From positions 1 through 47,471 of the IMG/VR virus record IMGVR_UViG_2541047941_000003: a DNA stretch of 47,471 bases, one strand, 5' to 3'. This DNA comes from a virus (lineage: Duplodnaviria; Heunggongvirae; Uroviricota; Caudoviricetes). Both the position numbers and the translations under genes were made by a program. Shown piece by piece: positions 1,195 through 35,041 of this stretch; position 1 is the stretch's first letter; each line of letters opens with the position of its first letter. The notes under the pieces are model-generated. The model worked only from the letters and a program-made list of their open reading frames with translations, was not told the origin of the DNA and did not search any database.

Positions 1195-1433
1195 TTTATC
1201 TTCTTTTTATCCTCCCACTCTTTGATTGACTCAGAGCGCCAGCGGTTAGGGTTGCCGGGCCAGTCAGGGGGTGGGAACGGGCATACGAAGCCCCGAGGCA
1301 TTGTGTCTGCACTTTGCCATGACCAAAGGGTTTTGCGTGAAATTTTGTAGCGACTGGTCAGGTCTGACGTTACCAAAATATCATCCATAGCTCTCTCCAG
1401 TTGCCCGTTCGGGCCATTCAAAATCTTTTTCAA
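1191..1433 (-). CDS. AlpA/Xis-like small DNA-binding protein (putative excisionase)
   Basis: 80 aa, adjacent to int; Trp-rich C-terminus ([21 protein letters not shown]) resembling AlpA-type excisionases. Confidence 0.5.
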
Positions 1434-1672
1434 CCAACCTGCCCGGGCAGGGAGCGGAGACGGCGCATGCCGGTCATCGCTGTGGCCACGTAGCTCGCCT
1501 TTCGGTTCACCACCTCCACCCAGACTTTCACGCCTTCAACCTTCACCGTATAAGTCTCTTTCATCTTGCTTCGCCCATAGTCGCCATATGTTTGCAAGTG
1601 AGCTGCCAGCGCGATGTCGCATGCTTGGCGAGCTAAAGGTGATTGCTTACTTCCTCGATTGATCAGTCGCAT
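1430..1672 (-). CDS. Hypothetical protein
   Basis: 80 aa ORF in operon with recombination genes; start uncertain. Confidence 0.35.
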   Translation of the reverse strand: MRLINRGSKQSPLARQACDIALAAHLQTYGDYGRSKMKETYTVKVEGVKVWVEVVNRKASYVATAMTGMRRLRSLPGQVG

Positions 1673-1710
1673 ATAATCTCCTTGAGGGAGGGTTACCCCT
1701 CCCGGTCTCG

Positions 1711-2829
1711 TCAGGCCACGTATTCCGGTTTCATATCCGCCAGGGTGATGCTGAATTGATCGTGCAGTTCATCGCCTAAGTGACGCTTTGAAGATGCAAG
1801 CATGCGCTCGGCTTCAGCGAACCGTTCGGCTGCATGCGGCTCGTCGGGCTGGGGCAGGGATTTAATAGCCTCCTCAACCTTGTTGCGTGCATCCACTAGG
1901 TAATAACGCTTTACGGCTTTGTTTTTCAGCTCGGTGAATAGTGCGGATCCCAGCGTAGCTTTCGCCGTTTCAATGTCGGCACGCAGCGATTTGGCGCTAT
2001 CCACGTCCTGAGCAGATTCGATGCGTTCGCGGAAATCATCGGCAAGAGAGTCGACATTTACCGACGATTCCTGTGCGCTTTGCGTGGTTGTGACGGTGTC
2101 ACCTGAGATATCAGCCAGGCTAACGCGTTGCGGCGTTGGGTTGATCTCTTTTTCTGTGCGCTGTTCAATCTCATCAGGGGTGTACACACCAAGAACAACT
2201 GCAGGGCAATACAGGCGCGCCCAGTATTTGAGTGCCAGATAAGCGATCTGCTGTTTCGGGTTTGATACCCAAAGTGGAGAATTACGTGTGATTACGCTGG
2301 AGAGGAAAACAGGCTCTCCCCAGGTGATATCACTTTCACCGCGAATAACGGCACCTACCCGTACCGACAGTCCTTGTTCATCAGCACTTTCCCAACCGCG
2401 TACCATTTCTTTCTTGTCGTACGTCCCGCCACCTTTCGCAGGCTTTTTAACGGTTATCTCGCGGCTGCTGGCACATTTCGACCAGTCGCCCTCGTACTCA
2501 TAGTGAAAGCGGCCAACGATGGCGTTTGAGCTGGAGATCACCGCATTAACCAGTTGCGCTTCGTATCCCAGGACACCGTTAACCAGGTGCGTCTTTTGCG
2601 CCACGGCGTAAGGGTTCATACCCCACTGCATCGCCTGCATGATGATGGCCATGCAGTCTGCCGGATTGCCGCGGAGGTGCTCAGGCACCGTTACGGCTGC
2701 CTGTGCCATCAACCCGGCGACAGACTGAAGCTGGGTTAAAGCCTGCACGTTGAAAATGGCATTGCTGGCTGAGATCGTGTTTGGAGTCTGCTGTTCAGCG
2801 GTTACGATATTCGTGTTTTCCATCATCAT
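1711..2829 (-). CDS. recT: Single-strand annealing recombinase (RecT/Bet-like)
   Basis: 372 aa ORF immediately downstream of RecE-like exonuclease in same orientation, as in recET operons; family call by synteny and general sequence character. Confidence 0.5.
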   Translation of the reverse strand: MMMENTNIVTAEQQTPNTISASNAIFNVQALTQLQSVAGLMAQAAVTVPEHLRGNPADCMAIIMQAMQWGMNPYAVAQKTHLVNGVLGYEAQLVNAVISSSNAIVGRFHYEYEGDWSKCASSREITVKKPAKGGGTYDKKEMVRGWESADEQGLSVRVGAVIRGESDITWGEPVFLSSVITRNSPLWVSNPKQQIAYLALKYWARLYCPAVVLGVYTPDEIEQRTEKEINPTPQRVSLADISGDTVTTTQSAQESSVNVDSLADDFRERIESAQDVDSAKSLRADIETAKATLGSALFTELKNKAVKRYYLVDARNKVEEAIKSLPQPDEPHAAERFAEAERMLASSKRHLGDELHDQFSITLADMKPEYVA

Positions 2830-2834
2830 TCCCC

Positions 2835-5800
2835 TTATGCCTGAGTACGCAGCGCTTCAAGGCGGCGCAGGTCGAAGTCGTTCAGTTCGTCGGTGTAGTC
2901 AGCAGTGATTGGCGCTGGCCATTCACCTGTGTCGAATCCGGTTGCGATATTGCGCATCGCTTTGCGGTACTCGAGCATACCCAGCTCCAGTAGTTCAGCG
3001 GATGCCTCGATGATGGCGATCCAGTGGTAGTTCTCGTCTTTGTTGACGAAAATCCAGAAGAACTGATCCAGCGCTGCGGTTTCGCAGTACATAGCCGCGC
3101 TCAGGTGATAATCACGTTCAATAATTTCCCGGTGTAGCCTGGCGCGCAGGCTTTCCTGCTTAACATTCCACATGCTGATGGTTTTCAGGTCTGCACCTAT
3201 ACGCACGCCATCCAGGTCGATCTCAAGGTCAGGGCGCACACGAACTTCCAAGCCCGTCTCCTCGTCAAAACCAAAGTAGCTCACCTCAACGGCTCGGCTA
3301 GGGTGGGTCAGCAGCATGCCGGCGGTCGGGTGTGCCAGAAGCGCTTTTTGAATATTCAGCGCGGTGCTCAGCTGCTGGCGGGTGACCAGCACTTTTCCTT
3401 CCGGGTTATCGCGCCAGGCATCCAGCAGTTCGTCGGCAAATACGGCATCTGGTTTGACTGCCTTCACGGCCTGGATCATGTCTGCTTTGGTACCGGACAC
3501 TTTCAGTGGTGCCGGTTTCTGTGCTTCCTGAGCCACAAGGTCAGGGTTGATGATTGCCAACTGCTCCAGCAGCGCGTCACGGCTGCCGCTGGTTTTAACC
3601 GGCGGCGGCAGGGTGGCGTTGTACTCTTTAATGCATGCCTTCATTGCCGTCGCCGTCTGCTTCTGGTCACCATCAATACGCTGGAAGTCAGCTGGCAGCG
3701 CCATATAGTTCTGTGCCGTTTCTTCCAGGTTAGCGCCAAGCGGAACCTGCGGCGGCAGGGTGGCGTTGTACTCTTCCAGTAACACCTTGATGTCGTCGGC
3801 AGACAGCAGCGCCGGCAGGCTGGCATTGTGCTCATCGATAAAGGCGCGCAGGGTCGCGGCCGTTGTGAATGCGCCTTCAGGGATCACCGGTTCAACGCTG
3901 AATTCTGCGTCCAGTAGTTCAGGCTGCAACGCCAGCGCATGCACCAAGTTGCCCATGTCCAGCACCGCTGAGCGCTCTTTGACGATGGTTTTCTCTACGT
4001 GGCGCGCATTGAAGTACATCAGCGAAACGCGCGCATCTTTCACCTGGGTTGAGCTGATGCCGTTGGCGGCGTGGTAAACCTCGTTTGGCAGCCCTTCATA
4101 GCGGCCTGGCTCGAAATAAGCGGGATAAACAACAGCCGGTTCGTCAGATTGCGCTTCTGGCTCGGTTTGTGCTGCAACTGGTTCGGTTTGGCTTACAGAA
4201 TCGCTATTTTTGGCGACAGAATCCGTATTCTGGTTTACATCGTCCTTCTGGCTGGTATCTGACTCTTCACCAGACTCCAGACTGCTTTCGCCTGGCTGTA
4301 CTTCATCACCAGCTTGTTTTTCATCACTGACAGTTTCTTGAACCTGCACATTGCTGGTGGTCTCCGTAGCCTTTTTCGTGCCATGAGTTGCTGAGTTCTG
4401 CAGCAAAGCCGTAACGTCGAATATTCCGTTGCCGACATTTTTAACCAGTTCTTGTTCGACTTTCTGCGGTTGTGCTGCCGCTTCCTCTGCGCGGCGGCGT
4501 GCTCCTTCTTCACGCACGCGTTGCAGGTTCTCTTCGTGAGTGCAGAAGGATTTGCGCGGAGACTCCTTACCTTCAGGTTGGGGAATTTCCTGTGCTGCGG
4601 GTTCAGCCTCATGCAACGGCAATAACTCGACCGCGGAATTGAACGCGGCTGTCATGGTCTGGTTAACAAATTCCAGGTGAGCGACAGGAGTTAAATGAAT
4701 ATTTTCCGGTGCGATACGTACCAGGTTAAAAATAGCCGTGCGGTTAACACCCAGAACGCCTGGCTGATTGCGCAGGATGTTGCTCCATGATTTCCATGGT
4801 TCTTCTTTTTTGGTCACGATTTCTTTAGCGCGACGAAGAATGCTGCCCGGGATCTCGAAGTGGTTGAAGTCCATAGGCAGAAGGGCACACGCAATCTCTA
4901 AATCGAGAGTGTCCAGTGTGTGGTGTGCGTCAGGTCCACGGTCAGTGACGTAACCGCCGTCGGCATTAGTGCCGGAATCAGTACGCTGCACACTACTGAT
5001 GCGATTACCGGCGGCCCATTCGCGAACGAAGATACCGCGGTCGATGTGATCTGTAGCGAACCACAATTTCAAAAACTGGATTAAGGTTGCGAGTTCAGGG
5101 ATTTTTCCATCGACAGGGAAGACTTTCTTAACGGCATTCACGACTTTATGAATATCGTGCTCAATGGCTTTTTTGAATGCTTCCACATTCTCAGCTGCCA
5201 GCAGCAGGTTCTGGACGTACGCGTCATCGGTGTCCATCTCAAGGCGGACAATCTCATTTTTCTGCCCTGCGTCGATGTGATAGAGATATTCACCATCACC
5301 GATGAACTGAGCCAGTACGCGCTGGCGGAATGGCAGGGTGGCAACAACGATCAGGTTCGGTTGCTGTGTCTGCTGGGATTGCTCTTCGGTATCGACTTCA
5401 CCATCAACGACGCCACCTTCTGCCCGGCCGTTCTCGTCGGTCTGGATACCGTCCTCAACAGTGAGATCTTGACCCGTTGTAACGTCAGCAGCGTTGCTGG
5501 TTTCAGTTTTGAGCAACTGCAACTTACCACTGCGCCAGTCTTCTACCAGTTGATTGCGGTCACCGGCATCGGTGTTCACCCAGTCAGACATGAATGCAGC
5601 GATCAATCTTGGTTCGTGCTCTTCGTCTGGTGTGAAAATGTCCTTAACCGCCCGAATCATTTTCCACTCAGCATTCAGGCTGAGTTTGGCGGTCGCGGGC
5701 ACATCGTTCCTTGCCACAAGCAGGCTATGGAGATATGTATTGCCTTCATCCAGTGACATTTCGCTGGCAGCCAACTGCTGCTCTTTAGTGACGTGGGTTT

Positions 5801-6224
5801 GGTATTTATCGTTCATCAGATGGACGGCAAAGCGGACCGCTGGAGTACGGTTTTCAACCGGGACAATTTCGGACGCAGTCGCATCTTCAACGATTACGGT
5901 CGGAGTAGGTGTGTAGGGGGCGTAAACGGAACCAGTAGACACACCAGCGGCTTTTGGCAGCCAGGTGCGCCCATCGTCCTGAAGCTCGTAGCGATCACAC
6001 CAGGTAAAATCAACTTCACCTTCTTTCGGCAGGCCGTCGACAACTGGGAAATCAGTGCGAATCGGTTTGGCGTAGTCCTTACCCCGACCTGTTTCGATAC
6101 CTGCATCTTCCAGCGCAACATCCAGCATCAGATTGGCGCGAGCCTCGGTTTTAGCAGTGAACCAGACCACTGCATCTTGCTTTCCGGATTTCTGAGTGGC
6201 TTTAACCACATTAAAGAATTCCAT
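2835..6224 (-). CDS. recE: Exodeoxyribonuclease VIII (RecE-like), C-terminal PD-(D/E)XK/YqaJ-type nuclease domain
   Basis: 1129 aa; long acidic/low-complexity N-terminal region and conserved C-terminal nuclease-like region; followed by annealing protein. Confidence 0.65.
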   Translation of the reverse strand: MEFFNVVKATQKSGKQDAVVWFTAKTEARANLMLDVALEDAGIETGRGKDYAKPIRTDFPVVDGLPKEGEVDFTWCDRYELQDDGRTWLPKAAGVSTGSVYAPYTPTPTVIVEDATASEIVPVENRTPAVRFAVHLMNDKYQTHVTKEQQLAASEMSLDEGNTYLHSLLVARNDVPATAKLSLNAEWKMIRAVKDIFTPDEEHEPRLIAAFMSDWVNTDAGDRNQLVEDWRSGKLQLLKTETSNAADVTTGQDLTVEDGIQTDENGRAEGGVVDGEVDTEEQSQQTQQPNLIVVATLPFRQRVLAQFIGDGEYLYHIDAGQKNEIVRLEMDTDDAYVQNLLLAAENVEAFKKAIEHDIHKVVNAVKKVFPVDGKIPELATLIQFLKLWFATDHIDRGIFVREWAAGNRISSVQRTDSGTNADGGYVTDRGPDAHHTLDTLDLEIACALLPMDFNHFEIPGSILRRAKEIVTKKEEPWKSWSNILRNQPGVLGVNRTAIFNLVRIAPENIHLTPVAHLEFVNQTMTAAFNSAVELLPLHEAEPAAQEIPQPEGKESPRKSFCTHEENLQRVREEGARRRAEEAAAQPQKVEQELVKNVGNGIFDVTALLQNSATHGTKKATETTSNVQVQETVSDEKQAGDEVQPGESSLESGEESDTSQKDDVNQNTDSVAKNSDSVSQTEPVAAQTEPEAQSDEPAVVYPAYFEPGRYEGLPNEVYHAANGISSTQVKDARVSLMYFNARHVEKTIVKERSAVLDMGNLVHALALQPELLDAEFSVEPVIPEGAFTTAATLRAFIDEHNASLPALLSADDIKVLLEEYNATLPPQVPLGANLEETAQNYMALPADFQRIDGDQKQTATAMKACIKEYNATLPPPVKTSGSRDALLEQLAIINPDLVAQEAQKPAPLKVSGTKADMIQAVKAVKPDAVFADELLDAWRDNPEGKVLVTRQQLSTALNIQKALLAHPTAGMLLTHPSRAVEVSYFGFDEETGLEVRVRPDLEIDLDGVRIGADLKTISMWNVKQESLRARLHREIIERDYHLSAAMYCETAALDQFFWIFVNKDENYHWIAIIEASAELLELGMLEYRKAMRNIATGFDTGEWPAPITADYTDELNDFDLRRLEALRTQA
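3601..3836. repeat. Three imperfect copies of a ~28 nt coding repeat (cggcggcagggtggcgttgtactctt) inside recE-like gene, encoding E(Y/H)NA(T/S)LP motifs
   Basis: Direct sequence comparison of 3601-3628, 3747-3777, 3806-3836. Confidence 0.6.
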
Positions 6225-6363
6225 GTGAGATCCTCATTTTTGGGTGTTAGAATCCCCGGACCATTGATAGCGCCCATTGGGTTAACTTTGGTTTTAATGT
6301 TGTTTCCGGTGTAACTTTGGTCGGTACCACCGGACGTAGATCCCGCCTTGCGCGGGTTTTACG

Positions 6364-6525
6364 TTAGCCTTCGTGAGCCATCTGGTCGTGCGAAGCGCAA
6401 CGTTTGGAGCAATACTCTTTTTCTTTGCGCGCCAGCTGTGAGCCGTTGCGATAGAGAAGGGTGCTCTTGATTACTTCCTCCGTTTTAACCGGCTTGCCGC
6501 AATATCCGCATTTCTTGTCTAACAT
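6364..6525 (-). CDS. Small Cys4 zinc-ribbon protein (53 aa; below ORF-track cutoff)
   Basis: ATG..TAA ORF translating MLDKKCGYCGKPV...YCSKRCASHDQ with CxxC...CxxxC spacing; lies in early-left operon. Confidence 0.4.
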   Translation of the reverse strand: MLDKKCGYCGKPVKTEEVIKSTLLYRNGSQLARKEKEYCSKRCASHDQMAHEG

Positions 6526-6536
6526 GACATCCTCCG

Positions 6537-6887
6537 CTAGTGGCTGAGTCCATGCCCCAGACCGTTCAGATAAACTTCAACCAGCAAATCCTTGGTGTAA
6601 GTCATTTCTACGCCGCGATGCAGATACAAACGTCCGCGAGCGTTAGCTGATGCCGTCCAGGTTGAGTCTTTGTGTTTGACGAGCATCCCCGGCTGAACTG
6701 CGCCGCGGTTTACTGTCTGTGTACCGTAGTGCTGATGAACCATGATGTTCTCCAGTTTTTCTGAGTGAACTTCGCTGGTGATGCCGCGGCGCTGATCTTC
6801 ACGGTTGAGCGTTTTAACTCTGCAATTCACCACCGCGAAGCTCACTCTGTGCTTTGCCCTTGTCGCCAGGCTGGCGGAACGTTTCAA
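6537..6887 (-). CDS. Hypothetical early-left operon protein
   Basis: 116 aa ORF just downstream of OL-like operator region; start may be internal Met. Confidence 0.4.
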   Translation of the reverse strand: MKRSASLATRAKHRVSFAVVNCRVKTLNREDQRRGITSEVHSEKLENIMVHQHYGTQTVNRGAVQPGMLVKHKDSTWTASANARGRLYLHRGVEMTYTKDLLVEVYLNGLGHGLSH

Positions 6888-6988
6888 ACCTACTGCGCGT
6901 TAATCTCACCACCTCATTCCGGTCTTCGTATGCCCCGGACAGCTTCTTCGTGGGCGTCCTGCTTTGGTGGTTGTGTTGATGGAGTAAT

Positions 6989-7003
6989 TAAACACAATGT
7001 TTA
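6989..7003. promoter_or_regulatory. OL-like operator: palindrome TAAACAcaaTGTTTA, near-identical to OR site at 9059-9073
   Basis: Inverted repeat read directly; 14 of 15 positions match TAAACATAATGTTTA in cI-cro intergenic region. Confidence 0.55.
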
Positions 7004-7127
7004 TTTACGTGTCAACATAATGAGTGTTTTTATATAAACAAAAAGTTTAGTTGGTTGCGCTCGTTGGCACGAGTAGTATGTTTTGTGGTCTATTTTGTGG
7101 TTATAAAAAAATCGATGAGGGTGAGTT

Positions 7128-7334
7128 ATGGATCGTGACGAACTGGAAGAAGACCGCGCAGCGTTTATTGCGGGGGAGATTGGTGGCGCAGTTGTCAGTC
7201 TGATAGCTAACGGGATTGTGATCAGCCGCGATGCGATTGTGGATAGTCTAGAGGCTAAGCGCAGGGTAGTGGGAAACGTCATTCACAAGTGGGTATTGCG
7301 GGATGCGGCTGCTATGGTGAGAAAAGGGCAATAA
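7128..7334 (+). CDS. Hypothetical small protein (68 aa), convergent with cI operon
   Basis: ORF followed by bidirectional terminator hairpin. Confidence 0.4.
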   Translation: MDRDELEEDRAAFIAGEIGGAVVSLIANGIVISRDAIVDSLEAKRRVVGNVIHKWVLRDAAAMVRKGQ

Positions 7335-7336
7335 AA

Positions 7337-7364
7337 AACCCAGTTCGGTAACTGGGTTATTGCT
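7337..7364. terminator. Bidirectional intrinsic terminator (aacccagtt-cggt-aactgggtt flanked by A-run and T-run)
   Basis: 9 bp perfect stem, 4 nt loop, poly-A upstream and T-rich downstream; sits between convergent genes. Confidence 0.6.
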
Positions 7365-7790
7365 TTATTCAACAGATGATGGGGGGGTCGGTGCTTTCTT
7401 AAAGATCGACCACTGAGAAATGTAGGTCAGCAACCTTGAGCTTAACTCGAGTTCTTTTTGTAATATTTCGTCATAACGTTTATTTGCTGCTTGCATGGTC
7501 GCATCACTAGCGTGATTGTCATCCATAATGATCTTTAGCCTTTTCTTTTCTCGGCTTGAGCATATTGTAAATAACAGACCTGTAAATGACATTCCACCAA
7601 AATCCTTTAACGTTTTGATTACAAAAAGAAGAATCAAAGACAGAAAAGGAACAGATCTGTAGGCCCAATCACGAAACTCACCGTCAGGAAAGAAGATAGG
7701 AATAGCATCTGTAGCATAACCACATATGAGGGAGACAATTAGAAAAGGTAGTCCATTTTTAGCTACATTTTTAACGTTATCGTTAGCCAT
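7365..7790 (-). CDS. Small membrane protein (~141 aa, 2-3 predicted TM helices, charged C-terminal tail), cassette gene C
   Basis: Hydrophobic stretches GLPFLIVSLICGYATDAIPIFF, VPFLSLILLFVIKTL; ATG overlaps stop of upstream gene (ATGGCTAA); AT-rich. Confidence 0.5.
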   Translation of the reverse strand: MANDNVKNVAKNGLPFLIVSLICGYATDAIPIFFPDGEFRDWAYRSVPFLSLILLFVIKTLKDFGGMSFTGLLFTICSSREKKRLKIIMDDNHASDATMQAANKRYDEILQKELELSSRLLTYISQWSIFKKAPTPPSSVE

Positions 7791-8166
7791 GATTTTTTCC
7801 CGAGAACGATTTCGAGTCAACATGTAACTTTTGTGTTTTGACTACATAATACGCAAATCCAATCTTAACTAACCAATAAGCTACTGGTATGAGTGCTGCG
7901 TAAAGAGGGATATAGTACATAACCTTACCTCCTGTTAACCACACTATAACACCTAGCATCACTATTAGCGCGACAGAAAATGCTTTCAGCCCAACACAGC
8001 TATCAGGATGTGAAACACTGTTCCTTAGCAACAATATCCTGGATTCATCAAGTGTGTAAGGAATATCGCCAACATGATTTTCGATTTTTGGGAAGGTCTC
8101 AAATACTTCAACCCGATCAATCGAAATAATTGAGCTTGATTGATGATCTAAGCAAACTGCAGCCAC
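7783..8166 (-). CDS. Small membrane protein (127 aa, 2 C-terminal TM helices), cassette gene B
   Basis: GTG start preceded by GAGGG; TM segments AFSVALIVMLGVIVWL and IPLYAALIPVAYWLVKIGFAYYVV; AT-rich. Confidence 0.45.
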   Translation of the reverse strand: MAAVCLDHQSSSIISIDRVEVFETFPKIENHVGDIPYTLDESRILLLRNSVSHPDSCVGLKAFSVALIVMLGVIVWLTGGKVMYYIPLYAALIPVAYWLVKIGFAYYVVKTQKLHVDSKSFSGKNHG

Positions 8167-8168
8167 TG

Positions 8169-8492
8169 TTATCCCTCTCGAACCTTTAGTGATACTCGGT
8201 TAGCAGCAAATGTGGCAATGAAACCACATTCTACACATATAACAGGGAATGCCCATATACCTCGGCCAGCTGAATGAGGTAGAGGAAGGGTAATTATTGC
8301 AGGATAGTCTTGACTATCTTCTCGTGGAGGAACTCCCCAAAGCGTATGCTTACAAAGCGGACAGGCCATCTCGCCATGTTTTTCTTCGAGGCGTTGAAAA
8401 TAATCTCGAAATTCTTGTCTTGATATTGATAGCGTCAATGCTGTTGTATTGACACTTTCCTGACTTTTTTCTTCTTCAACCTGTTCGCCCAT
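8169..8492 (-). CDS. Small zinc-ribbon protein (~107 aa), cassette gene A
   Basis: CPLC...CVEC motif pair; first gene downstream of cI in same orientation; AT-rich. Confidence 0.45.
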   Translation of the reverse strand: MGEQVEEEKSQESVNTTALTLSISRQEFRDYFQRLEEKHGEMACPLCKHTLWGVPPREDSQDYPAIITLPLPHSAGRGIWAFPVICVECGFIATFAANRVSLKVREG

Positions 8493-8603
8493 CTCAGCTC
8501 TCAATATAATGATAATTAACTGGTAAGTGAATTTTGCATATCGTTAAGATGTATCCCATTGGTACAGAAACATCTGAGGGGTAAGTAGCTTTTAACTACC
8601 GTG

Positions 8604-9962: not shown

Positions 9963-10871
9963 ATGTCAAACACCGCTGAAATAATCAATTTCCCAAATAA
10001 AACCGAACAACCGGGAGGTCGTATGGCCGACCTGTCGAACGGGTATACCAAGGTCGCTAACGAGATCCAACAGCTTAAGCCTCGCCTGAGACTGTCAGGC
10101 CGGGAATGGCAATGTTTTGAGGCGGTGATCTGGCTTACCTACGGCTGGAACAAGAAACAGGACCGCGTGACAAATACGGTTATTGCCGAGCTTACGGGCC
10201 TGAGCGATACGCATGTATCGGACGCGCTTAAGTCTCTCGCAGAACGCAAAATCATCTTTTCACAGAAGCAGGGCATGATGAAAATCGTCGGTGTAAACAC
10301 TGACCTTTCAGCATGGATTTTAGACAAACCGGAAACGGGAAGAAAATTCCCGAAAACGGGAAAATCCTTCCCGAAATCAGGAATAACCTTCCCGAAAACG
10401 GTAGACACCCAATACAAGAACAAGAACAGTATTAAAAGATCTTCGTCCGAGAATTCTGACGAATCCTCTGACGCACGTCTGAAGAAATTTTTATCAACTC
10501 ATCCTGAAGCTGCGGTCTACACACCATCCGGTGCGAAGTGGGGCTCTGCTGAAGACCTCGAGACAGCTAAGTGGATTTCCTCCAGGGTGAAGCTGATTAA
10601 CCCAACCTGCAAAGCCCCGGACATGACCTCCTGGTCTAACACTGTTCGCCTGATGCGCCAGATAGACAACCGGTCGCACCAGGACATCTGCGCGCTGTAT
10701 GACTGGGCTAGCAAACACCACTTCTGGCAGACCAACATCCTGAGTCCCGAAAGCCTGCGTAAGCAGTGGGACAAGCTGACAATGCAGCGTAACGCCGGAG
10801 GTGAGCAGCGCGCTGTCAAGCCAGATCTGGACTTCAACAACACTGACTGGGCCTATGGGGTGATCCGATGA
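9963..10871 (+). CDS. Replication initiation protein (lambda O-like N-terminal domain)
   Basis: GGAG RBS; N-terminal REWQCFEAVIWLTYGWNKK...AELTGLSDTHVSDALKSL resembles phage O/replication-protein HTH; iterons inside gene. Confidence 0.7.
   Translation: MSNTAEIINFPNKTEQPGGRMADLSNGYTKVANEIQQLKPRLRLSGREWQCFEAVIWLTYGWNKKQDRVTNTVIAELTGLSDTHVSDALKSLAERKIIFSQKQGMMKIVGVNTDLSAWILDKPETGRKFPKTGKSFPKSGITFPKTVDTQYKNKNSIKRSSSENSDESSDARLKKFLSTHPEAAVYTPSGAKWGSAEDLETAKWISSRVKLINPTCKAPDMTSWSNTVRLMRQIDNRSHQDICALYDWASKHHFWQTNILSPESLRKQWDKLTMQRNAGGEQRAVKPDLDFNNTDWAYGVIR
10329..10402. repeat. Putative replication origin iterons (3-4 copies of TTCCCGAAAACGG-like unit) inside O-like gene
   Basis: ttcccgaaaacggg, ttcccgaaatcagg, ttcccgaaaacggt plus inverted ccggaaacgggaa; encodes repeated FPK(T/S)G peptide. 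Confidence 0.6.
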
Positions 10872-11557
10872 AATCTCTTGCAGAGCAGATGCGTAACCAC
10901 GACCGCGAGCAGATGAGCCGCATGGCCCATAACCTGCCAGAGCAGTACCAGGAGTGCGCGCCGGTCGAGCAGGTGGCGCAGGTATTCAACAAGCTGTTCA
11001 ACGAGCTGCGCGCCGCGTTCCCGGCCAGCATGGCGAACTTCCGCACCCAGGAAGACCTGAACGAATTCCGCCGTCAGTGGCTGCTGGCGTTTCAGGAGAA
11101 CGGGATCCACACCATGGCTCAGGTCGATGCCGGCATGCGCATTGCCCGCCGCCAGGAGCGCCCATTCCTGCCGTCGCCGGGCCAGTTCGTCGCCTGGTGC
11201 AAGCAGAGCGGCGGCGCGCTGGGCGTCAACGTTGACCAGGTGATCGCCGAATACTGGGACTGGCGTAACCGCTCGTTCGAATTCATCTCCAGCGAGCAAT
11301 TTCCATGGTCGCAGCCGGTCATGTACCACATTTGCGTAGAATTGCGCCACCGCAGCACCGAGCGCCAGTTAACGCATGGTGAACTGGCACGCGAGGCAGG
11401 CGATCTGCTGGACATGTGGGAAAGGCGCGTCACCGAGGGTAAGCCAGTGCCGCCGGTACGCCGGGCTATTGCCGCACCAGCTGCCGAGCAAGGGCCGACG
11501 CCGATCCAGCTGCTGCTGGCCAAGTACAACCGCAACAAGTCGAACGGGATGGTGTGA
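10868..11557 (+). CDS. Replication protein P-like (DnaB helicase loader)
   Basis: 229 aa; strong resemblance to lambda P (EQMRNHDREQM..., RPFLPSPGQFVAWC). Confidence 0.8.
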   Translation: MKSLAEQMRNHDREQMSRMAHNLPEQYQECAPVEQVAQVFNKLFNELRAAFPASMANFRTQEDLNEFRRQWLLAFQENGIHTMAQVDAGMRIARRQERPFLPSPGQFVAWCKQSGGALGVNVDQVIAEYWDWRNRSFEFISSEQFPWSQPVMYHICVELRHRSTERQLTHGELAREAGDLLDMWERRVTEGKPVPPVRRAIAAPAAEQGPTPIQLLLAKYNRNKSNGMV

Positions 11558-11558
11558 C

Positions 11559-11903
11559 ATGAACATAACAATCCGTGAGCAGGTGCTGGCAGCCCTGCGC
11601 AACAACCCAGGGTTGAACAACGCCAAACTGGCAGGGCTTATCGGCATGGACACCAAAAAGATATCCGGAACGGTGAGCACGCTGCTGGCAGACGGCCTGA
11701 TCCGCTGCGAAGGAAAATACGGCCAGCGCCTTTACAGCCTGACCAGCTACGGAATGCGCTTCGCCCCTGACACGATACCTGGCATGAAGCAGGGTAAGTC
11801 GAAGTTAATTCAGCGGACGGACACAAACGTGATCTGCCAGGAGTGCCGCAACAGCGCGGCGATGAGAAGGGTATTGATGGTTTGGGGGAGGGTAGGGGTA
11901 TGA
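11559..11903 (+). CDS. Hypothetical protein, possible winged-helix DNA-binding
   Basis: 114 aa, ATG 1 nt after P stop. Confidence 0.4.
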   Translation: MNITIREQVLAALRNNPGLNNAKLAGLIGMDTKKISGTVSTLLADGLIRCEGKYGQRLYSLTSYGMRFAPDTIPGMKQGKSKLIQRTDTNVICQECRNSAAMRRVLMVWGRVGV

Positions 11904-12097
11904 AAATCGAAGATATCAAAAACGTTGCGGTGTTCTTCAATATGAACGGCAAGACAGTAGCGTTACGAATGGATGCTGAGCAGAAGCGGATCGTCGCATT
12001 AATGGCGCTTAACACGGCTGATGCTCGGGCAGAACTGATTGAAGTGCCGCACATGACTTTACCAGCAGACCCAGCCATGGAGGAGGCCGCCCAATGA
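11900..12097 (+). CDS. Hypothetical protein
   Basis: 65 aa; ATGA overlap with upstream stop. Confidence 0.35.
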   Translation: MKIEDIKNVAVFFNMNGKTVALRMDAEQKRIVALMALNTADARAELIEVPHMTLPADPAMEEAAQ

Positions 12098-12471
12098 GCA
12101 ACATCGACAAACGTGGATTACGGGAAGTAGCGGAGAAGGCGACGAAAGGCCGGTGGGCTGTTGAGTTCGACGATGAGATTTACTCCACTGACGGCGTGAA
12201 CCATGAGCAAATAGCCATGGTATTCAGTGAAAACGAAGCGCGTGATGCTGCATTTATCGCCGCAGCCAACCCCGCCACCGTGCTGGCGCTGCTGGATGAG
12301 CTGGAATCCAAAGACAGGCGCAACGCTGAGCTGGAGGCAAAGTTAGCTAATCCCGTTTTGCTGCCAAAAACAAACGGCTACTGGACTGAGCAAGAAAAGG
12401 CTTATGAGGACGCTATCACACTAGCTAAGCGGCAGATTCGTCTGGCTGGATTCAGTGTGGAGGACATGTAA
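12094..12471 (+). CDS. Ead/Ea22-like protein
   Basis: 125 aa; PATVLALLDELE-type motif common in lambdoid nin-region proteins. Confidence 0.45.
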   Translation: MSNIDKRGLREVAEKATKGRWAVEFDDEIYSTDGVNHEQIAMVFSENEARDAAFIAAANPATVLALLDELESKDRRNAELEAKLANPVLLPKTNGYWTEQEKAYEDAITLAKRQIRLAGFSVEDM

Positions 12472-12713
12472 TGGCTATTTTTATGGAAGTACGTTGTGAA
12501 GGTGGTGAAGTTGATGGTTGCCATTCTTACCAGAACGCCGGGCCTGTGACGTCAGCTCATGAAAGCGTTAAGGGCGTTTCTGTGGCGCTGGCATTCCTTA
12601 AATCCGATTCAATCTATAACGGCTGGGTTTTGCACAAAGGTGAGCTTTATTGCCCGGTATGCGCCAAAGCAAAAGCATGGGACGCCGCTGGCATTGGCGT
12701 GAAGGGGGAATGA
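12471..12713 (+). CDS. Hypothetical protein
   Basis: 80 aa ORF in tightly packed nin-region operon. Confidence 0.35.
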   Translation: MAIFMEVRCEGGEVDGCHSYQNAGPVTSAHESVKGVSVALAFLKSDSIYNGWVLHKGELYCPVCAKAKAWDAAGIGVKGE

Positions 12714-12714
12714 G

Positions 12715-12918
12715 ATGTCAAAGTCACCAATGAAACTCATGCTACGGGCATGGAACAAAGAGCTTAAAAATCCAGAATGGGGCATGGGCAATCGTAAACA
12801 CCGCAAAGCTTGTGCTCGTGATTTTGCCGGAGCCAGCATAGAAACCGATGCTGATATCCCTAACCAAGCCGAAGCAGATGACCGCCTGGCGGAAGAACTT
12901 ACTTACTGGACGGACTAA
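12715..12918 (+). CDS. Hypothetical protein
   Basis: 67 aa ORF. Confidence 0.35.
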   Translation: MSKSPMKLMLRAWNKELKNPEWGMGNRKHRKACARDFAGASIETDADIPNQAEADDRLAEELTYWTD

Positions 12919-12921
12919 CCC

Positions 12922-13245
12922 ATGACAACTAACCACCCGGCGCACGGTCATGTATCACTCGATCGCCTGCACCAGATACGCGAAATACTCAGCAAAGCAT
13001 CCGCACAAAGCGACGGCGGTAATCTCGGCTACGCAATGGCTGATGCTGTGAAGGTGATTGATGAAGTGCTGGCGGCGCGCGCTGAAACCGTGAAGCTGCC
13101 GGCAGGGTACAACGTCCGACCTGGGCATCCAATTAACGAATCAGAGCGCGGCGTAATGATCCCCAAAGATAACGGCCAATGGCTTTCGCGTTTCGACGTT
13201 GAGCATGCCCTGCGAGTGGCGGGCGTCAGATTTAAGGAGGACTGA
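12922..13245 (+). CDS. Hypothetical protein
   Basis: 107 aa ORF. Confidence 0.35.
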   Translation: MTTNHPAHGHVSLDRLHQIREILSKASAQSDGGNLGYAMADAVKVIDEVLAARAETVKLPAGYNVRPGHPINESERGVMIPKDNGQWLSRFDVEHALRVAGVRFKED

Positions 13246-13502
13246 TGGAACCTCAACTGGAATACGCCACGAAACGCATCGTCGAACTGGAAAACCTGCT
13301 GCTGGTGGATGTGACCGAAACCGTCTGGCCTGCTGAGGTGGGAATGGTATATAGCCAGATTGAAAGTGCCGGGGATCTCCCGGCGCATCACCAGCGCCGC
13401 CTGAAGCATCACATCAACCGTATGTGGCTGGAGAAAATGCCGGTACCAGCCATCGTAAACGCCGCCCAGTCACTGGCCACCGCTATGGAGAAATACGCGT
13501 GA
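13245..13502 (+). CDS. Hypothetical protein
   Basis: 85 aa ORF. Confidence 0.35.
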   Translation: MEPQLEYATKRIVELENLLLVDVTETVWPAEVGMVYSQIESAGDLPAHHQRRLKHHINRMWLEKMPVPAIVNAAQSLATAMEKYA

Positions 13503-15382
13503 GAGAAATCATCGTTGATAACTTTGCCGGCGGCGGCGGGGCGAGCACGGGCATTGAGCTGGCGATCGGTCGTAGTGTGGATATTGCGATTAACCACGAC
13601 CCGAACGCTGTTGCGATGCACACTACGAACCACCCGGATACACTGCACTACTGCGAATCGGTGTTTGATGTCGATCCCATCGTAGCGACCGCTGGCCGCC
13701 CGGTGGGGCTGGCATGGTTTTCCCCTGATTGCCGTCACTTCTCAAAGGCTAAAGGTTCAAAGCCGGTAGAGAAAGAGATTCGTGGTTTGGCGTGGATTGT
13801 CATTCGCTGGGCGCTGGCGGTACGTCCCCGTGTGATGATGCTGGAGAACGTTGAAGAGTTCCGCACCTGGGGGCCGCTTATCGAATCTGCTGATGGTGGG
13901 TTACGTCCAAATCCCCTGCGTACTGGTGAGACCTTCGAGGCTTTCTGCGGCATGCTATCCGGTGGTATTCCTGCCGGTCATCCGGCGCTGGCGGAGTGCT
14001 GCGAGTTCCTGGGTATTACTGCCGACGGCGAACTGGCGCAGCAACTGGTGGCCGGGCTGGGTTACGCTGTTGATCATCGTGAGCTGCGCGCCTGCGACTT
14101 TGGCGCACCGACCATCAGGAAGCGTTTCTTCATGGTAATGCGTTGCGATGGTATGCCGGTGACCTGGCCGGACCCGACCCACGGCGACCCGAAATCTCCA
14201 GCTGTGCAGAGTGGAAAGTTGGCGCCATGGCGTACAGCTGCGGAGTGTATCGACTGGACCATTCCGGCACCGTCGATATTCGACCGCAAAAAGCCACTGG
14301 CTGAAAATACGCTCAAACGCATCGCTCGTGGCATCCAGCGGTTTGTGATCGAGAGCGCGTCGCCGTTCATCGTCAAGTGCAACCACACGACGACCAAAGG
14401 GAAATACGACTGTTTCCGTGGGCAGGCGCTGAGAGAGCCTCTGCAGACCATTACGAAAACCCACGGCTACGCGTTAGCCGTTCCACACCTGACAAAGTTC
14501 CGTACTGGCGCAACCGGGCAGCCCGTTACCGAACCCGTCCCGACGGTAACCGCTGGCACATCAAAACGTCCGGGCGGGAATGGGCATGCTCTGGGTATTG
14601 TTGAGGCAGCCATTGCGCCGTTTGTTGGTCGACAGTTTGGTGCGAGTGTCGGCCACCGGGCAGACGAACCGAGCGCAACCATCACCGCTGGCGGTGGCGG
14701 TAAATCTCAACTTGTAACGCCTACGCTGATCCAGATGGGTTATGGCGAACGACCTGGACAAGAACCGCGTGTGCTACGACTGGATAACCCGCTGGGGACC
14801 GTTACTGCAGGTGGAAATAAATTCGCGACGGTGAGCGCGTTTCTGGCGAAACACTACGGCGGCAACTATACGGGGCCGGGTGTCAGTATGGATGAGCCTA
14901 TGCACTCGGTTACGACTGTCGATCACCATGCAGTAGTTGCCTCTCATCTGGTGAAACTGCGTGGAACATGCCGCGACGGTCAACCATCCAGTGATCCAAT
15001 GCCAACAGTGACGGCGGGTGGGCTGCACGTAGGGGAGGTGAAAACCACTCTTGCGGTCGATGAATACGACGAACATCGCGCGCAGCTGGCGTTGGAGTTC
15101 CTGCGTAAGTACTGCGGTGAGGATTGCGACGGGCTGGTAGATATTGACAGAATCACTTTTCGCATCGTTGATATCGGTATGCGGATGCTGCAACCGCACG
15201 AGCTATACCGCGCGCAGGGCTTCCCGGAGTGGTACATCATCGATCAGGACTATCGGGGGCAGAAGTACGCGAAGGACAAGCAGGTTGCGCGTTGTGGCAA
15301 CGCAGTTCCGCCGCCATTCGCCGAGGCACTGGTGAGGGCTAATTTACCGGAGCTTTGTCAGCAGAAAGAGATCGCAGCTTAA
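13499..15382 (+). CDS. DNA (cytosine-5)-methyltransferase, phage orphan type
   Basis: GTG start overlapping upstream stop; motifs FAGGGGAS (AdoMet), SPDCRHFSKAKG (PC-like catalytic), MLENVEEF (ENV), RAQGFPEWY (C-terminal). Confidence 0.8.
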   Translation: MREIIVDNFAGGGGASTGIELAIGRSVDIAINHDPNAVAMHTTNHPDTLHYCESVFDVDPIVATAGRPVGLAWFSPDCRHFSKAKGSKPVEKEIRGLAWIVIRWALAVRPRVMMLENVEEFRTWGPLIESADGGLRPNPLRTGETFEAFCGMLSGGIPAGHPALAECCEFLGITADGELAQQLVAGLGYAVDHRELRACDFGAPTIRKRFFMVMRCDGMPVTWPDPTHGDPKSPAVQSGKLAPWRTAAECIDWTIPAPSIFDRKKPLAENTLKRIARGIQRFVIESASPFIVKCNHTTTKGKYDCFRGQALREPLQTITKTHGYALAVPHLTKFRTGATGQPVTEPVPTVTAGTSKRPGGNGHALGIVEAAIAPFVGRQFGASVGHRADEPSATITAGGGGKSQLVTPTLIQMGYGERPGQEPRVLRLDNPLGTVTAGGNKFATVSAFLAKHYGGNYTGPGVSMDEPMHSVTTVDHHAVVASHLVKLRGTCRDGQPSSDPMPTVTAGGLHVGEVKTTLAVDEYDEHRAQLALEFLRKYCGEDCDGLVDIDRITFRIVDIGMRMLQPHELYRAQGFPEWYIIDQDYRGQKYAKDKQVARCGNAVPPPFAEALVRANLPELCQQKEIAA

Positions 15383-15481
15383 TGTCCGAGTTTCAGAACA
15401 TGGTGTAACAAATCCTGCTACTTCAATGACGTAGATTCAAACCTGATATAATTAGGCTCTTCACAACACGAGGAGCCTAAA

Positions 15482-15718
15482 ATGCACCATTACATGATCC
15501 CTATCAACGGAACTGTTCACCTGATCAAGACTGACTCTCTAATCCCTGAAGGGACTGAGTATAGCTTTGAAGGAGAAAGTCTAATCTGCGCTCATGCCAC
15601 TTTTAAATCTGGGACGTATGGCTTCCTGATACCAAAGGGAAATCAGTTGAATAGAGAGCATGCGTTCTGGCATGTAAGTGGAATTCACCCTAATCCCCTG
15701 GGAATGGATAAATCGTAA
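15482..15718 (+). CDS. Hypothetical protein encoded in AT-rich insertion at methyltransferase 3' end
   Basis: 78 aa ORF with AGGAG RBS; flanked by duplicated methyltransferase 3' ends. Confidence 0.4.
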   Translation: MHHYMIPINGTVHLIKTDSLIPEGTEYSFEGESLICAHATFKSGTYGFLIPKGNQLNREHAFWHVSGIHPNPLGMDKS

Positions 15719-32394: not shown

Positions 32395-32766
32395 ATGGCT
32401 GGAGATACCACTAGTCGCCTGGCAGGTACCGCTTATGTCACCGTAAACGGGGTGACAGTTATGGTGGAGGGCTCATTCAAGTATCAGACCTCCACTGTTA
32501 ACCGTACCACGCTGACAGGCATGGACGGTGTGCATGGCTACAAAGAAAAGCCGGTTGCCCCGTATATTTCTGCCCGTCTTCGCGACAGCGGCGGTACCAA
32601 CGTACTGGGTTTTAACAAACAGACGAACGTCAACGTGATCGCCGAACTGGCGAACGGAAAGACTATTATCGGTCGCGCGCTATGGACGGTGAACGTTCAG
32701 GAAGTGGAAAGCGAAGATGCAGTGTTTGATGTTCGCTGGGAAGGCCGGGACGTAACGGAGAACTAA
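32395..32766 (+). CDS. Tail tube protein (Mu gpM-like)
   Basis: 123 aa directly after sheath. Confidence 0.65.
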   Translation: MAGDTTSRLAGTAYVTVNGVTVMVEGSFKYQTSTVNRTTLTGMDGVHGYKEKPVAPYISARLRDSGGTNVLGFNKQTNVNVIAELANGKTIIGRALWTVNVQEVESEDAVFDVRWEGRDVTEN

Positions 32767-32767
32767 G

Positions 32768-33046
32768 ATGGCAGAACTTGAACGCACCAAAGTCATTCCC
32801 CTCATCAAGCCTCTGGTCGATGAGGCGCAAAAAACACGCTATGAGCAACTGGAGCTGAAGGCGCCGACGCTCAGCCAGGCAGAGCAGTTCTACGAAAAGC
32901 AGGCATCGTCCACTTCACTGGCGGCGATGCGCCTGCTGATCTCGCTGGTCACGGATACGCGGGAAAGTGTGCTTCAGCCGATGGATTTTATCGACTTCCG
33001 AAAATGCGAGGAGTTTTTGCTCGGTTTTTTGACCTGGAAGCCCTGA
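32768..33046 (+). CDS. Tail assembly chaperone (short product of frameshift pair)
   Basis: 92 aa ORF ending just after slippery TTTTTTG. Confidence 0.6.
   Translation: MAELERTKVIPLIKPLVDEAQKTRYEQLELKAPTLSQAEQFYEKQASSTSLAAMRLLISLVTDTRESVLQPMDFIDFRKCEEFLLGFLTWKP
33025..33031 (+). other. Programmed -1 ribosomal frameshift slippery heptamer T_TTT_TTG
   Basis: X_XXY_YYZ heptamer in zero frame near end of chaperone ORF; -1 frame stays open to 33195. Confidence 0.6.
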
Positions 33047-33195
33047 CCGCCTGGCAGGAAACGGCGGCTGACGTCACATTTTATTTCCGCTGGACAGAAG
33101 ACAGGGCATGGGGCATGACCTATGCCCGTCTGAAGTGGTGGGTATCGCAGGCCTCCCGTATCAATAAACTCAGGAATCCCGAACCCGATGAGTAA
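33030..33195 (+). CDS. C-terminal extension of tail assembly chaperone made by -1 frameshift (fusion product 32768..33195)
   Basis: Overlapping ORF in -1 frame ending with TAA that overlaps ATG of tape measure ORF. Confidence 0.5.
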
Positions 33196-33409
33196 TTCTT
33201 TCGACTTTGAGCTGGTGGCCAGCGACTAGGCGACGGAAGCCATTGAGCGTATCAATGAGGCTATCCGTGATCTGGAACCAAAGCTGGATAAAACCAAAGA
33301 GGGACTCCAGTTAGGAGGGCAGGAGACCCTCGATGGACTGAACGGCTTTATTTCCCGCTTCGAAAATCTGTCCAAAAATGCCCGTGATAATGTTCAGTAC
33401 ATCGGGGAC

Positions 33410-35041
33410 ATGGTACCGCCGCTGAAGATGGTCGGTGAGCTCTCCGGTAAGCTGGCATCGCTGGGGGTGGTTGGAGCGGCGGGATATGGGCTAAAACAGA
33501 TTGCCTACGGTTTCCATGAGGCCTCAAGGGAAGCCTATAACCTCGATGTCGCCGCGAAAAATGCGGGTATGCGAGTGGACGATTTTTCCCGCCTGTCCGG
33601 TGCCATGCGGATACTGGGTGCTGATGGCGACAGTGCAAATTCCTCCATTGAGGGGATGGCTAAAAGCCTGAAGGAGGCCGCCAGCGGTGCCAACAGCCAG
33701 GTACTCGGCGCATTGTCACAGATTGGCGTTCAGATCCAGAAAAACAACGATGGATCCGTTGATACGCTGAGAACGCTGGAGTCGATAGCACGCGTTTTCC
33801 CGAGTCTGCGACCGGACCAGCAGAAATCAGTTTCCGATGCCCTCGGGTTGACGCCGGAAATGCTGGCGCTGATGCGTGAAGGCGTACGGATGAAAGCATT
33901 GCTGGCTAAATCTGATGAACTTGGCCTGACGGTTGATCCGGAGCTTAACCGGCAATTGTCCGAAGTTAACGGCTCCATGAATGAGCTGGGCGCTGCATGG
34001 GATGGGCTGAAAAACCGTTCGAAAAACTCTCTGTTTAAAGGATTGCTTTCCGATGGTTCGGTGAAAGACGGCCTTGAAGGAGTGACCGACTTGTTCACGA
34101 ATGGCGATTTCACCGGGCTGTCGCATGCGCTGGGGTTTATCAGTAGCAAGGATGCCGGGAAGCTACGCCGCATTCAGGGTGATAAGGCGCTGTATAACAC
34201 CCTTTCCCGGCGCGAGCGCGGAGCGGTGGATGCCGGCTTTATGACTGATGCCGTCCGTAAACGCTATGACGCGCAATATGGCGCCAGTGACAGAGCTGAA
34301 CAACTCCGAAATGATTTGTCTGTCATCCTGCCAGCAGGTGCAGCAGCTCCACGCGGAGAGGTGAATTACAGCCAGCCATCTAACCAGGCACTGGGCCTGA
34401 GAAATAATAACCCCGGCAATCTCCGGATAGCGCCTAATGCGACCGGGGTGAATCGTGGTTTCGTCACTTATGACAACAGCAGAGACGGGCTGGCGGCAAT
34501 GGCCCGGCAACTGATGTTATATGGCGATCGTGGGAATAACACGCTGAACAGCATGATCCACACTTATGCGCCACGCTCGGAAAATGATACGCAGTCCTAT
34601 ATCAATTCAGTATCGGCCGCGACAGGTATTCAGCCCCATCAGCGGGTGGATCTGCATAACCCGGAGGTGCTGAAGTCAGTCATGGCGGCCATGATTCAGC
34701 ATGAGAATGGGGCGCAGCCATATTCTGAAGATGAGATACGGGCGGCAATTCAGACGGCTATCAGTGATCCGCGCTGGTCTGGTCTTCGTGACAGCCGAGT
34801 GCTCAGCCAGCAGAGAGAGAACATCCTCGTACCGCAACCGGACAAGTTTGACAGTACCTCAATCCTGACAGCTTCCGGTAATGGGAGAGACACTGTCAGT
34901 GAAAACCTGACCCGGTCTCTCAAAGAGGCGATGGCCGATCAGAAAATGAAGCTGGAAATCACCCTGGTCAATGATAAGGGGGAGAAGAAAACCTATAACG
35001 TCGAGGATAACGGCAGAATAACAACCGCCATGAATTACTAA
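33410..35041 (+). CDS. Tail tape measure protein (first ATG after in-frame TAG; upstream coding-like extension from 33188)
   Basis: 543 aa from ATG 33410; same frame is coding-like from ATG 33188 but interrupted by TAG at 33227-33229. Confidence 0.6.
   Translation: MVPPLKMVGELSGKLASLGVVGAAGYGLKQIAYGFHEASREAYNLDVAAKNAGMRVDDFSRLSGAMRILGADGDSANSSIEGMAKSLKEAASGANSQVLGALSQIGVQIQKNNDGSVDTLRTLESIARVFPSLRPDQQKSVSDALGLTPEMLALMREGVRMKALLAKSDELGLTVDPELNRQLSEVNGSMNELGAAWDGLKNRSKNSLFKGLLSDGSVKDGLEGVTDLFTNGDFTGLSHALGFISSKDAGKLRRIQGDKALYNTLSRRERGAVDAGFMTDAVRKRYDAQYGASDRAEQLRNDLSVILPAGAAAPRGEVNYSQPSNQALGLRNNNPGNLRIAPNATGVNRGFVTYDNSRDGLAAMARQLMLYGDRGNNTLNSMIHTYAPRSENDTQSYINSVSAATGIQPHQRVDLHNPEVLKSVMAAMIQHENGAQPYSEDEIRAAIQTAISDPRWSGLRDSRVLSQQRENILVPQPDKFDSTSILTASGNGRDTVSENLTRSLKEAMADQKMKLEITLVNDKGEKKTYNVEDNGRITTAMNY

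Follow-up and report, generated by a model that had tools for sequence, protein, structure and literature searches.

Recent amber mutation at codon 14 of the tape measure gene in an Escherichia coli prophage

Where does this prophage's gene for the tape measure protein (TMP) begin, and what is the meaning of a stop codon lying in frame shortly after its apparent start? The question concerns a stretch of 47,471 nucleotides (IMG/VR record IMGVR_UViG_2541047941_000003; the whole stretch is called the window here), which stems from an E. coli prophage whose early and head genes are lambda-like and whose contractile tail module is Mu/P2-like. A first-pass annotation had left two alternatives: either the TMP starts at ATG 33410, or it starts at ATG 33188 and the prophage carries an amber mutation. 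The results described below make the second alternative very probable. The gene starts at 33188, a recent C-to-T change at position 33227, within a Dcm site, has turned Gln14 into an amber codon, and the expected loss of the TMP would mark an early stage of prophage decay.

The ATG at 33188-33190 is located inside ATGAGTAA, whose TAA (33193-33195) closes ORF 33004..33195; the sequence around the ATG reads ...CCCGATGAGTAATTCT.... The overlap of this ATG with the stop of a frameshifted chaperone product, pointed out in the first-pass annotation, is evident in the sequence and is accompanied by a conserved slippery heptamer and a conserved −1 frame tail. Translation from 33188 gives MSNSFDFELVASD, a stop, and then ATEAIERINEAIRDLEPKLDK... 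(post-stop residues ATEAIE...). This stop, TAG 33227-33229, is codon 14, follows 13 sense codons and is the only one ahead of the TAA at 35039-35041. An in-frame codon check agreed with the earlier statement that no alternative ATG, GTG or TTG occurs between the TAG and ATG 33410; the only candidates there are ATT, ATC and CTG codons, and the ATG nearest after the TAG, at 33256, is out of frame. A stop-free run of 60 codons has a chance of approximately 0.056 (about 6%) in random sequence by our own arithmetic and is weak evidence alone, therefore the coding status of 33188-33410 must rest on comparison.

Relatives were collected by megablast with positions 32700-33900, which returned 19 complete E. 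coli chromosomes; Citrobacter phage phiNP was added by a search of higher sensitivity. In each record examined, the annotation of the gene following the tail assembly protein begins at the equivalent of base 33188. In close relatives the coding sequence (CDS) of this TMP gene comprises 1854 nt (617 aa), whereas E. coli 100416 has 1812 nt and phiNP 1914 nt; the proteins span 603-637 aa, and all complete-genome relatives whose annotation was read have a full-length TMP CDS. Alignment of the region 33150-33430 showed that the ATGAGTAA junction is invariant across four relatives (three complete E. coli genomes and phiNP) and that codon 14 is CAG in all four, versus TAG in the window. Relative to E. 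coli MIN9, the differing codons among codons 1-74 are eight synonymous ones and a single nonsynonymous one, which is the amber codon itself. Relative to E. coli 100416, 26 are synonymous and 12 nonsynonymous, with 5, 8 and 34 differences on codon positions 1, 2 and 3, respectively. Judged by these substitutions, codons 1-74 are under purifying selection. The amber codon is thus situated, as the first-pass annotation had proposed, within a coding-like N-terminal extension, whose 74 codons are conserved as protein in relatives.

A degenerate pattern placed on the junction was used to retrieve further relatives from IMG/VR. Among the 76 contigs obtained, codon 14 was CAG in 74, CAT in two and TAG in none, and all complete ORFs from the common ATG had 601-665 aa, bar one disrupted copy. 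The Gln14-restored protein matched PHROG 2276 (tail length tape measure protein; E=8.3e-142), residues 1-582 being aligned to positions 1-673 of the 673 in the profile. Several more distant TMP PHROG profiles aligned from residues 13-14 and covered residues 13-74. The Pfam model PhageMin_Tail (PF10145) remained under its threshold (19.6 bits versus a cut-off of 33.2), which has no bearing on TMP identity, since this model covers only some TMP families. The gene is identified as a TMP gene because of the PHROG 2276 match and the synteny: it stands in the position of its class, directly after a −1 frameshift chaperone pair and ahead of the baseplate genes. By descent the gene belongs to the TMP family, its full-length frame is interrupted by the TAG at codon 14, and the copy in the window is presumably a null allele.

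On sequence comparison, the native start of the TMP gene is 33188, because of the homologue starts, the substitution pattern of codons 1-74 and the PHROG 2276 alignment from residue 1. The other alternative of the first-pass annotation, according to which ATG 33410 is the native TMP start and the 222 nt before it form a coding-looking non-coding spacer, can point to ORF 33410..35041 being the longest uninterrupted ORF and to the public annotation of the source strain, which calls exactly this ORF (WP_021571830.1). Its probability is virtually nil: every homologue examined opens at the 33188 equivalent, none combines a start at the 33410 equivalent with unrelated upstream sequence, the profile is aligned from residue 1, codons 1-74 show purifying selection, the intact allele is one base away, and the Shine-Dalgarno (SD) sequence at 33410 is weak and abuts the ATG. 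A native start at 33410 was consequently ruled out by the homologue starts and the profile alignment.

The public records revealed how the amber allele is related to intact ones. WP_021571830.1 belongs to a 90%-identity cluster of 590 members; the listed members have 617 aa (one has 610 aa), start with MSNSFDFELVASDQ and all have Q at position 14. By exact look-up, the 617-aa Gln14-restored protein (P0016) is already public on at least 32 contigs, as MULTISPECIES Enterobacteriaceae; a contig index lists it in 63 blocks, and the 543-aa product is recorded on three contigs. The 543-aa ORF is an annotation artefact of the amber mutation and no native gene start. Five loci encoding the intact protein (L088-L092) were compared with the window, and over the 1854-nt gene the only difference was position 33227, which is C in these loci and T in the window. 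For L088 and L090 this is the single difference across the whole colinear stretch of approximately 15 kb, and L089 differs from the window at three positions in 21.8 kb. Because L088-L092 differ from the window gene only at 33227, the amber codon goes back, as read from these alignments, to a single C-to-T transition that took place very recently in a sequence otherwise equal to intact copies.

Comparison with five complete genomes gave 39 window-specific differences, mostly between 33418 and 35399, which could be taken for a diverged TMP allele. This candidate was ruled out, as versus the exact-allele relatives L088-L092 only 33227 differs, and on the same alignments the cluster of 39 private single-nucleotide polymorphisms is explained by mosaicism. 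An exact-pattern scan of the GTDB species-representative genomes matched neither the amber nor the intact allele and is hence uninformative; the plasmid collection likewise gave no match. A lone base differing from many otherwise identical sequences could also be a sequencing or assembly error, the strain itself having CAG. A base-calling error is unlikely because the TAG recurs in the Logan assembly of the separate ENA run ERR4556442, in which 7632 nt are identical to the window, and because the truncated product is found on three contigs in addition to the NCBI record. Moreover, 33227 lies outside any homopolymer and coincides with a known biological mutation hotspot, so that the strain having CAG is regarded as exceedingly improbable.

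The dcm gene is widespread in E. coli. The ancestral sequence GAC-CAG-GCG holds the Dcm recognition sequence CCAGG, and 33227 is its internal C, changed to T; this context was absent from the first-pass annotation. In lacI, the second C of CCAGG is an amber hotspot through deamination of 5-methylcytosine to thymine, and GC-to-AT transitions at this base dominate the spontaneous amber mutations (PMC12606429). Vsr-dependent very-short-patch (VSP) repair acts specifically on T:G mismatches in CTWGG/CCWGG (PMC2715241). Single-base nonsense changes were counted in the 23 late genes of the prophage: 1936 stop-creating changes are possible, 484 of them GC-to-AT transitions and 23 located on a Dcm-methylated C, while in the TMP gene alone 3 of 178 possible nonsense changes are on a Dcm-methylated C. 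Because the mutated base is the internal, Dcm-methylated C of CCAGG, the most likely origin, judged from this single event, is deamination in the lysogen, where 5-methylcytosine at 33227 would have been converted to T and would have escaped VSP repair.

The window also encodes a cytosine methylase of its own. A 652-aa ORF (13424-15382, + strand) contains a C-5 cytosine DNA methylase domain (Pfam PF00145, E=1.7e-19; TIGR00675 under its cut-off; nearest solved structure 3g7u). It is part of a 3.6-kb block (approximately 11557-15214) of small nin-region-type genes, which is absent from the prophages of E. coli 23CRST046 and EC17CM13 and present in L088. A prophage-borne C5 methylase would add 5-methylcytosine sites, and thus deamination hotspots, to its own genome.

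The state of the remaining prophage was assessed gene by gene against the E. coli 23CRST046 prophage. The 46 annotated CDSs of that locus span the repressor region, replication, NinG, Q, lysis, terminase, portal, protease, decoration, capsid, sheath, tube, chaperone, TMP, DNA circularisation protein, baseplate, distal acyltransferase and recombinase. For 45 of the 46 a match was found in the window, and the only premature stop among the matched CDSs was TMP codon 14. A single-base gap was present in one match, a small distal ORF at 76% identity; the other matches were without indels. A generally decayed prophage was therefore rejected, as the well-matched CDSs shared with 23CRST046 contain no further lesions.

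What is found at this locus is an early UAG interrupting an essential gene, and a single base change separates it from the ancestral codon (CAG to TAG). TMPs are needed to start tail tube polymerisation on the baseplate and to set its length, and they are bound by G/GT-type chaperones (PMC5009743). PhiNP, a plaque-forming temperate myovirus (PMC6456863), has a full-length TMP homologue, and the full-length TMP is the functional form in this family. In a host lacking an amber suppressor, translation would stop after a 13-residue peptide and no TMP would be made; tube and sheath would then not be assembled to length on the baseplate. Lysis is still expected on induction because the lysis genes are intact, and the known role of TMPs predicts that filled heads without tails, and no infectious particles, would be released. 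We infer that tails and infectivity are lost and that the TMP gene is likely to be functionally a pseudogene in a non-suppressing host. The amber codon, as the only disruptive lesion in the compared genes, would represent an early step of prophage decay. This is an ordinary, very recent gene inactivation, and neither a special start site nor a recoding signal.

Three routes by which the prophage could nevertheless produce virions were considered. Firstly, the amber codon might be decoded by a host suppressor tRNA (supE-type, inserting Gln) or by natural read-through, a few TMP copies sufficing per virion, and the prophage would then be functional. CAG-to-TAG is exactly the change that is reversed by a glutamine-inserting suppressor, supE would restore the wild-type Gln, position 14 accepts Gln or His in relatives (74 CAG, 2 CAT), and the other compared prophage genes are intact. 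This explanation is nonetheless very unlikely. No tRNA gene was found in the window, which eliminates a phage-encoded suppressor tRNA, and the amber allele is rare, with three contigs versus 63 index blocks for the intact allele. A conserved recoding or read-through signal was likewise discarded, as TAG occurs in none of the 76 IMG/VR contigs, the four aligned relatives and the listed cluster members. In general, natural isolates seldom carry amber suppressors, and E. coli shows little basal read-through of UAG; both count against suppression.

Secondly, the amber allele might make a natural conditional prophage, its virions depending on a suppressor tRNA of the host or of a co-resident element, or on basal Gln read-through. 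This too has a very low probability; if true, the lineage would keep a low, tunable release of infectious particles. Thirdly, internal initiation at ATG 33410 might yield a TMP truncated to 543 aa and a somewhat shorter, functional tail. With −4.5 kcal/mol, SD pairing at 33410 does not fall behind that at the native start 33188 (−4.3; the 23 late genes have a median of −6.3), and internal TMP deletions shorten tails roughly in proportion (PMC5099701). However, the G-run at 33410 directly abuts the ATG (1 nt away), a poor spacing; no homologue lacks the N-terminal segment, all extending over 601-665 aa from the common ATG; and several TMP PHROG profiles can be aligned with residues 13-74. TP901-1 loses infectivity through deletions within the 154 N-terminal residues of its TMP, and deletion of residues 2-31 leaves it without tails (PMC5099701); this argues against a functional truncated TMP by analogy only, TP901-1 being an unrelated siphophage. 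A shorter functional tail is thus considered clearly unlikely.

Several points weigh against the preferred reading of a recent, Dcm-associated inactivation of the TMP gene, or limit it. The hit on the Dcm site is a single event, with p of approximately 0.012 under uniform mutation and approximately 0.05 among GC-to-AT transitions, and an ordinary replication error at 33227 is a possible alternative to deamination. ERR4556442 is a separate ENA run and may represent an independent isolate or re-sequencing of the same strain. Near-cognate UAG read-through or weak initiation at ATG 33410 could yield traces of protein. Finally, the screen for lesions covered the window between the left arm (1-8600) and the distal fibre region (beyond approximately 43011), the 3.6-kb insert (approximately 11557-15214) excepted; insert and distal fibre region have no counterpart in 23CRST046.

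The features of the locus are listed in Table 1.

Table 1. Features of the tape measure locus, in coordinates of the window
Feature	Position	Strand	Basis or remark
Tail assembly chaperone gene (P2 gpE / Mu gp41 type), 92 aa	32768..33046	+	Pfam, PHROG, relatives
Slippery heptamer T_TTT_TTG, predicted −1 programmed frameshifting	33025..33031	+	Read from sequence, near end of chaperone gene
−1 frame chaperone extension (E+E'/GT-like product)	33028..33195	+	ORF 33004..33195; ends with TAA 33193-33195
TMP gene	33188..35041	+	617 codons plus stop, amber at codon 14; 1854-nt CDSs of relatives, PHROG 2276
Former Dcm methylation site	33226..33230		CTAGG in the window; close relatives all have CCAGG
Amber codon TAG	33227..33229	+	Ancestral CAG (Gln14); mutated base 33227, C to T
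Residual longest ORF, 543 aa	33410..35041	+	WP_021571830.1 / EQZ16877.1, hypothetical protein, E. coli UMEA 3355-1

The genes of the tail module follow each other in the order sheath (30880), tube (32395), chaperone (32768), −1 extension (to 33195), TMP (33188), DNA_circ_N (35088) and gpP/gp45/gp46/gp47. The chaperone was assigned by Pfam PF10109 (Phage_TAC_7, E=5.6e-07, over the curated cut-off) and PHROG 166 (tail protein), and its product is the same as WP_000818812.1 of relatives. ORF 33004..33195 is in the −1 frame relative to the chaperone ORF, and the extension matched PHROG 10636 (E=2.8e-20). The heptamer T_TTT_TTG recurs in phage phiNP, E. coli 100416 and E. coli MIN9, each time at the identical place (nt 258 of 279). 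These divergent relatives likewise keep the −1 frame tail FDLEALTAWQ...DE, followed by the stop. A conserved slippery site and a conserved −1 tail, as in the class of lambda G/GT, P2 E/E+E' and Mu gp41, predict a chaperone with −1 programmed frameshifting.

Only the rare −1 frameshift product has a stop that overlaps with the start codon of the TMP gene (ATGAGTAA); the abundant chaperone ends 141 nt before this start codon, whose SD is weak. The divergent relatives of the alignment, which were found by homology and not by the junction pattern, all have the junction unchanged. Such an overlap could couple part of TMP initiation to frameshifted ribosomes. Within the TMP gene, the region of approximately 34355-34765 (residues ~390-530, in the C-terminal third) matched phrog_873 (E=9e-42) and phrog_7182 (E=6e-15), i.e., endolysin / tail injection transglycosylase, and the TMP homologue of 100416 is annotated as an SLT-domain protein. 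These matches suggest that the C-terminal third of the TMP may embed a peptidoglycan-degrading domain.

Downstream of the baseplate genes, an Acyl_transf_3 acyltransferase is encoded on the opposite strand (41194-42285, −), between baseplate and fibre genes; it is likely to be an O-antigen-modifying moron. It is followed by two ORFs of 726 aa and 267 aa (42581-45566, +) without a Pfam match. This position is highly variable, and relatives have SGNH/GDSL hydrolase, CotH kinase or beta-helix proteins there.

Signs of decay were also observed among the relatives. Several genomes carry tail modules that are nucleotide-identical to that of the window, with an intact TMP, and have lost large parts of the prophage. 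L088 has a large deletion and is without head genes; in L090 a truncated replication gene runs straight into the tail genes; L091 has lost the genes for Q, lysis and terminase, and its fibre region is inverted. A remnant in E. coli HS corresponds to approximately half of the query in two pieces (H48-H51). In the disrupted copy among the IMG/VR contigs (L060, IMGVR_UViG_2806310720_000002, TMP gene from 2120), the frame is broken after approximately 274 residues by unrelated sequence, possibly through an insertion or rearrangement, which would be an independent disruption of the TMP gene. E. coli EC17CM13 (L083, NZ_CP190333.1) has a prophage at the same chromosomal locus, beside yciI-tonB. It shares the left arm of the window (integrase, RecT, RecE, repressor region), its structural module is completely different, and its replication protein and antiterminator genes (9963-10871 and 14717-15526 of that locus) are annotated as pseudogenes with internal stops. 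The prophage lineage decays repeatedly and by different routes, and the tail module kept in the deleted copies might be a candidate for tailocin-like domestication.

For annotation, these results mean that WP_021571830.1 (543 aa) is the remnant of a 617-aa TMP gene and should be flagged as a pseudogene, and that the prophage should be scored as probably defective despite its complete look. The locus cleanly illustrates two textbook processes in nature: prophage decay at its first point mutation, caught on an intact-copy background, and the conversion of CAG to TAG at the methylated C of a Dcm site. The gene family, the module, the type of lesion and the type of hotspot were already known, and the truncated product was present in public databases, mis-described. 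The finding opens no new biological question and will not surprise a specialist.

The amber allele resembles several known systems. In the lacI amber hotspots (Coulondre, Miller, Farabaugh and Gilbert 1978), as far as they are summarised in PMC12606429, the change is likewise CAG to TAG at the second C of CCAGG, and the CTAGG of the window is a VSP-repair substrate context as in those hotspots. Unlike them, the change in the window occurred naturally in a clinical isolate, in a structural gene of its prophage, and is inferred from a single event. Classical amber (sus) mutants of phage tail genes, such as those of lambda H, likewise have an early UAG in an essential TMP gene while the rest is intact, and a suppressor-rescued conditional lethality is predicted here as well. 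In contrast to these mutants, the allele of the window arose spontaneously in a resident prophage, without selection on a suppressor host. The phiNP TMP (WOZ57174.1, OR565852) shares the gene order, the ATGAGTAA junction and Gln14 with the ancestral gene of the window; nucleotide identity is approximately 69%, and the phiNP TMP (637 aa) is intact whereas that of the window is broken at codon 14. Finally, as in cryptic or defective prophages, an essential virion gene has been lost from an integrated prophage. Unlike other decayed prophages, the window shows what seems to be the earliest stage, with one point mutation in an otherwise intact-copy background.

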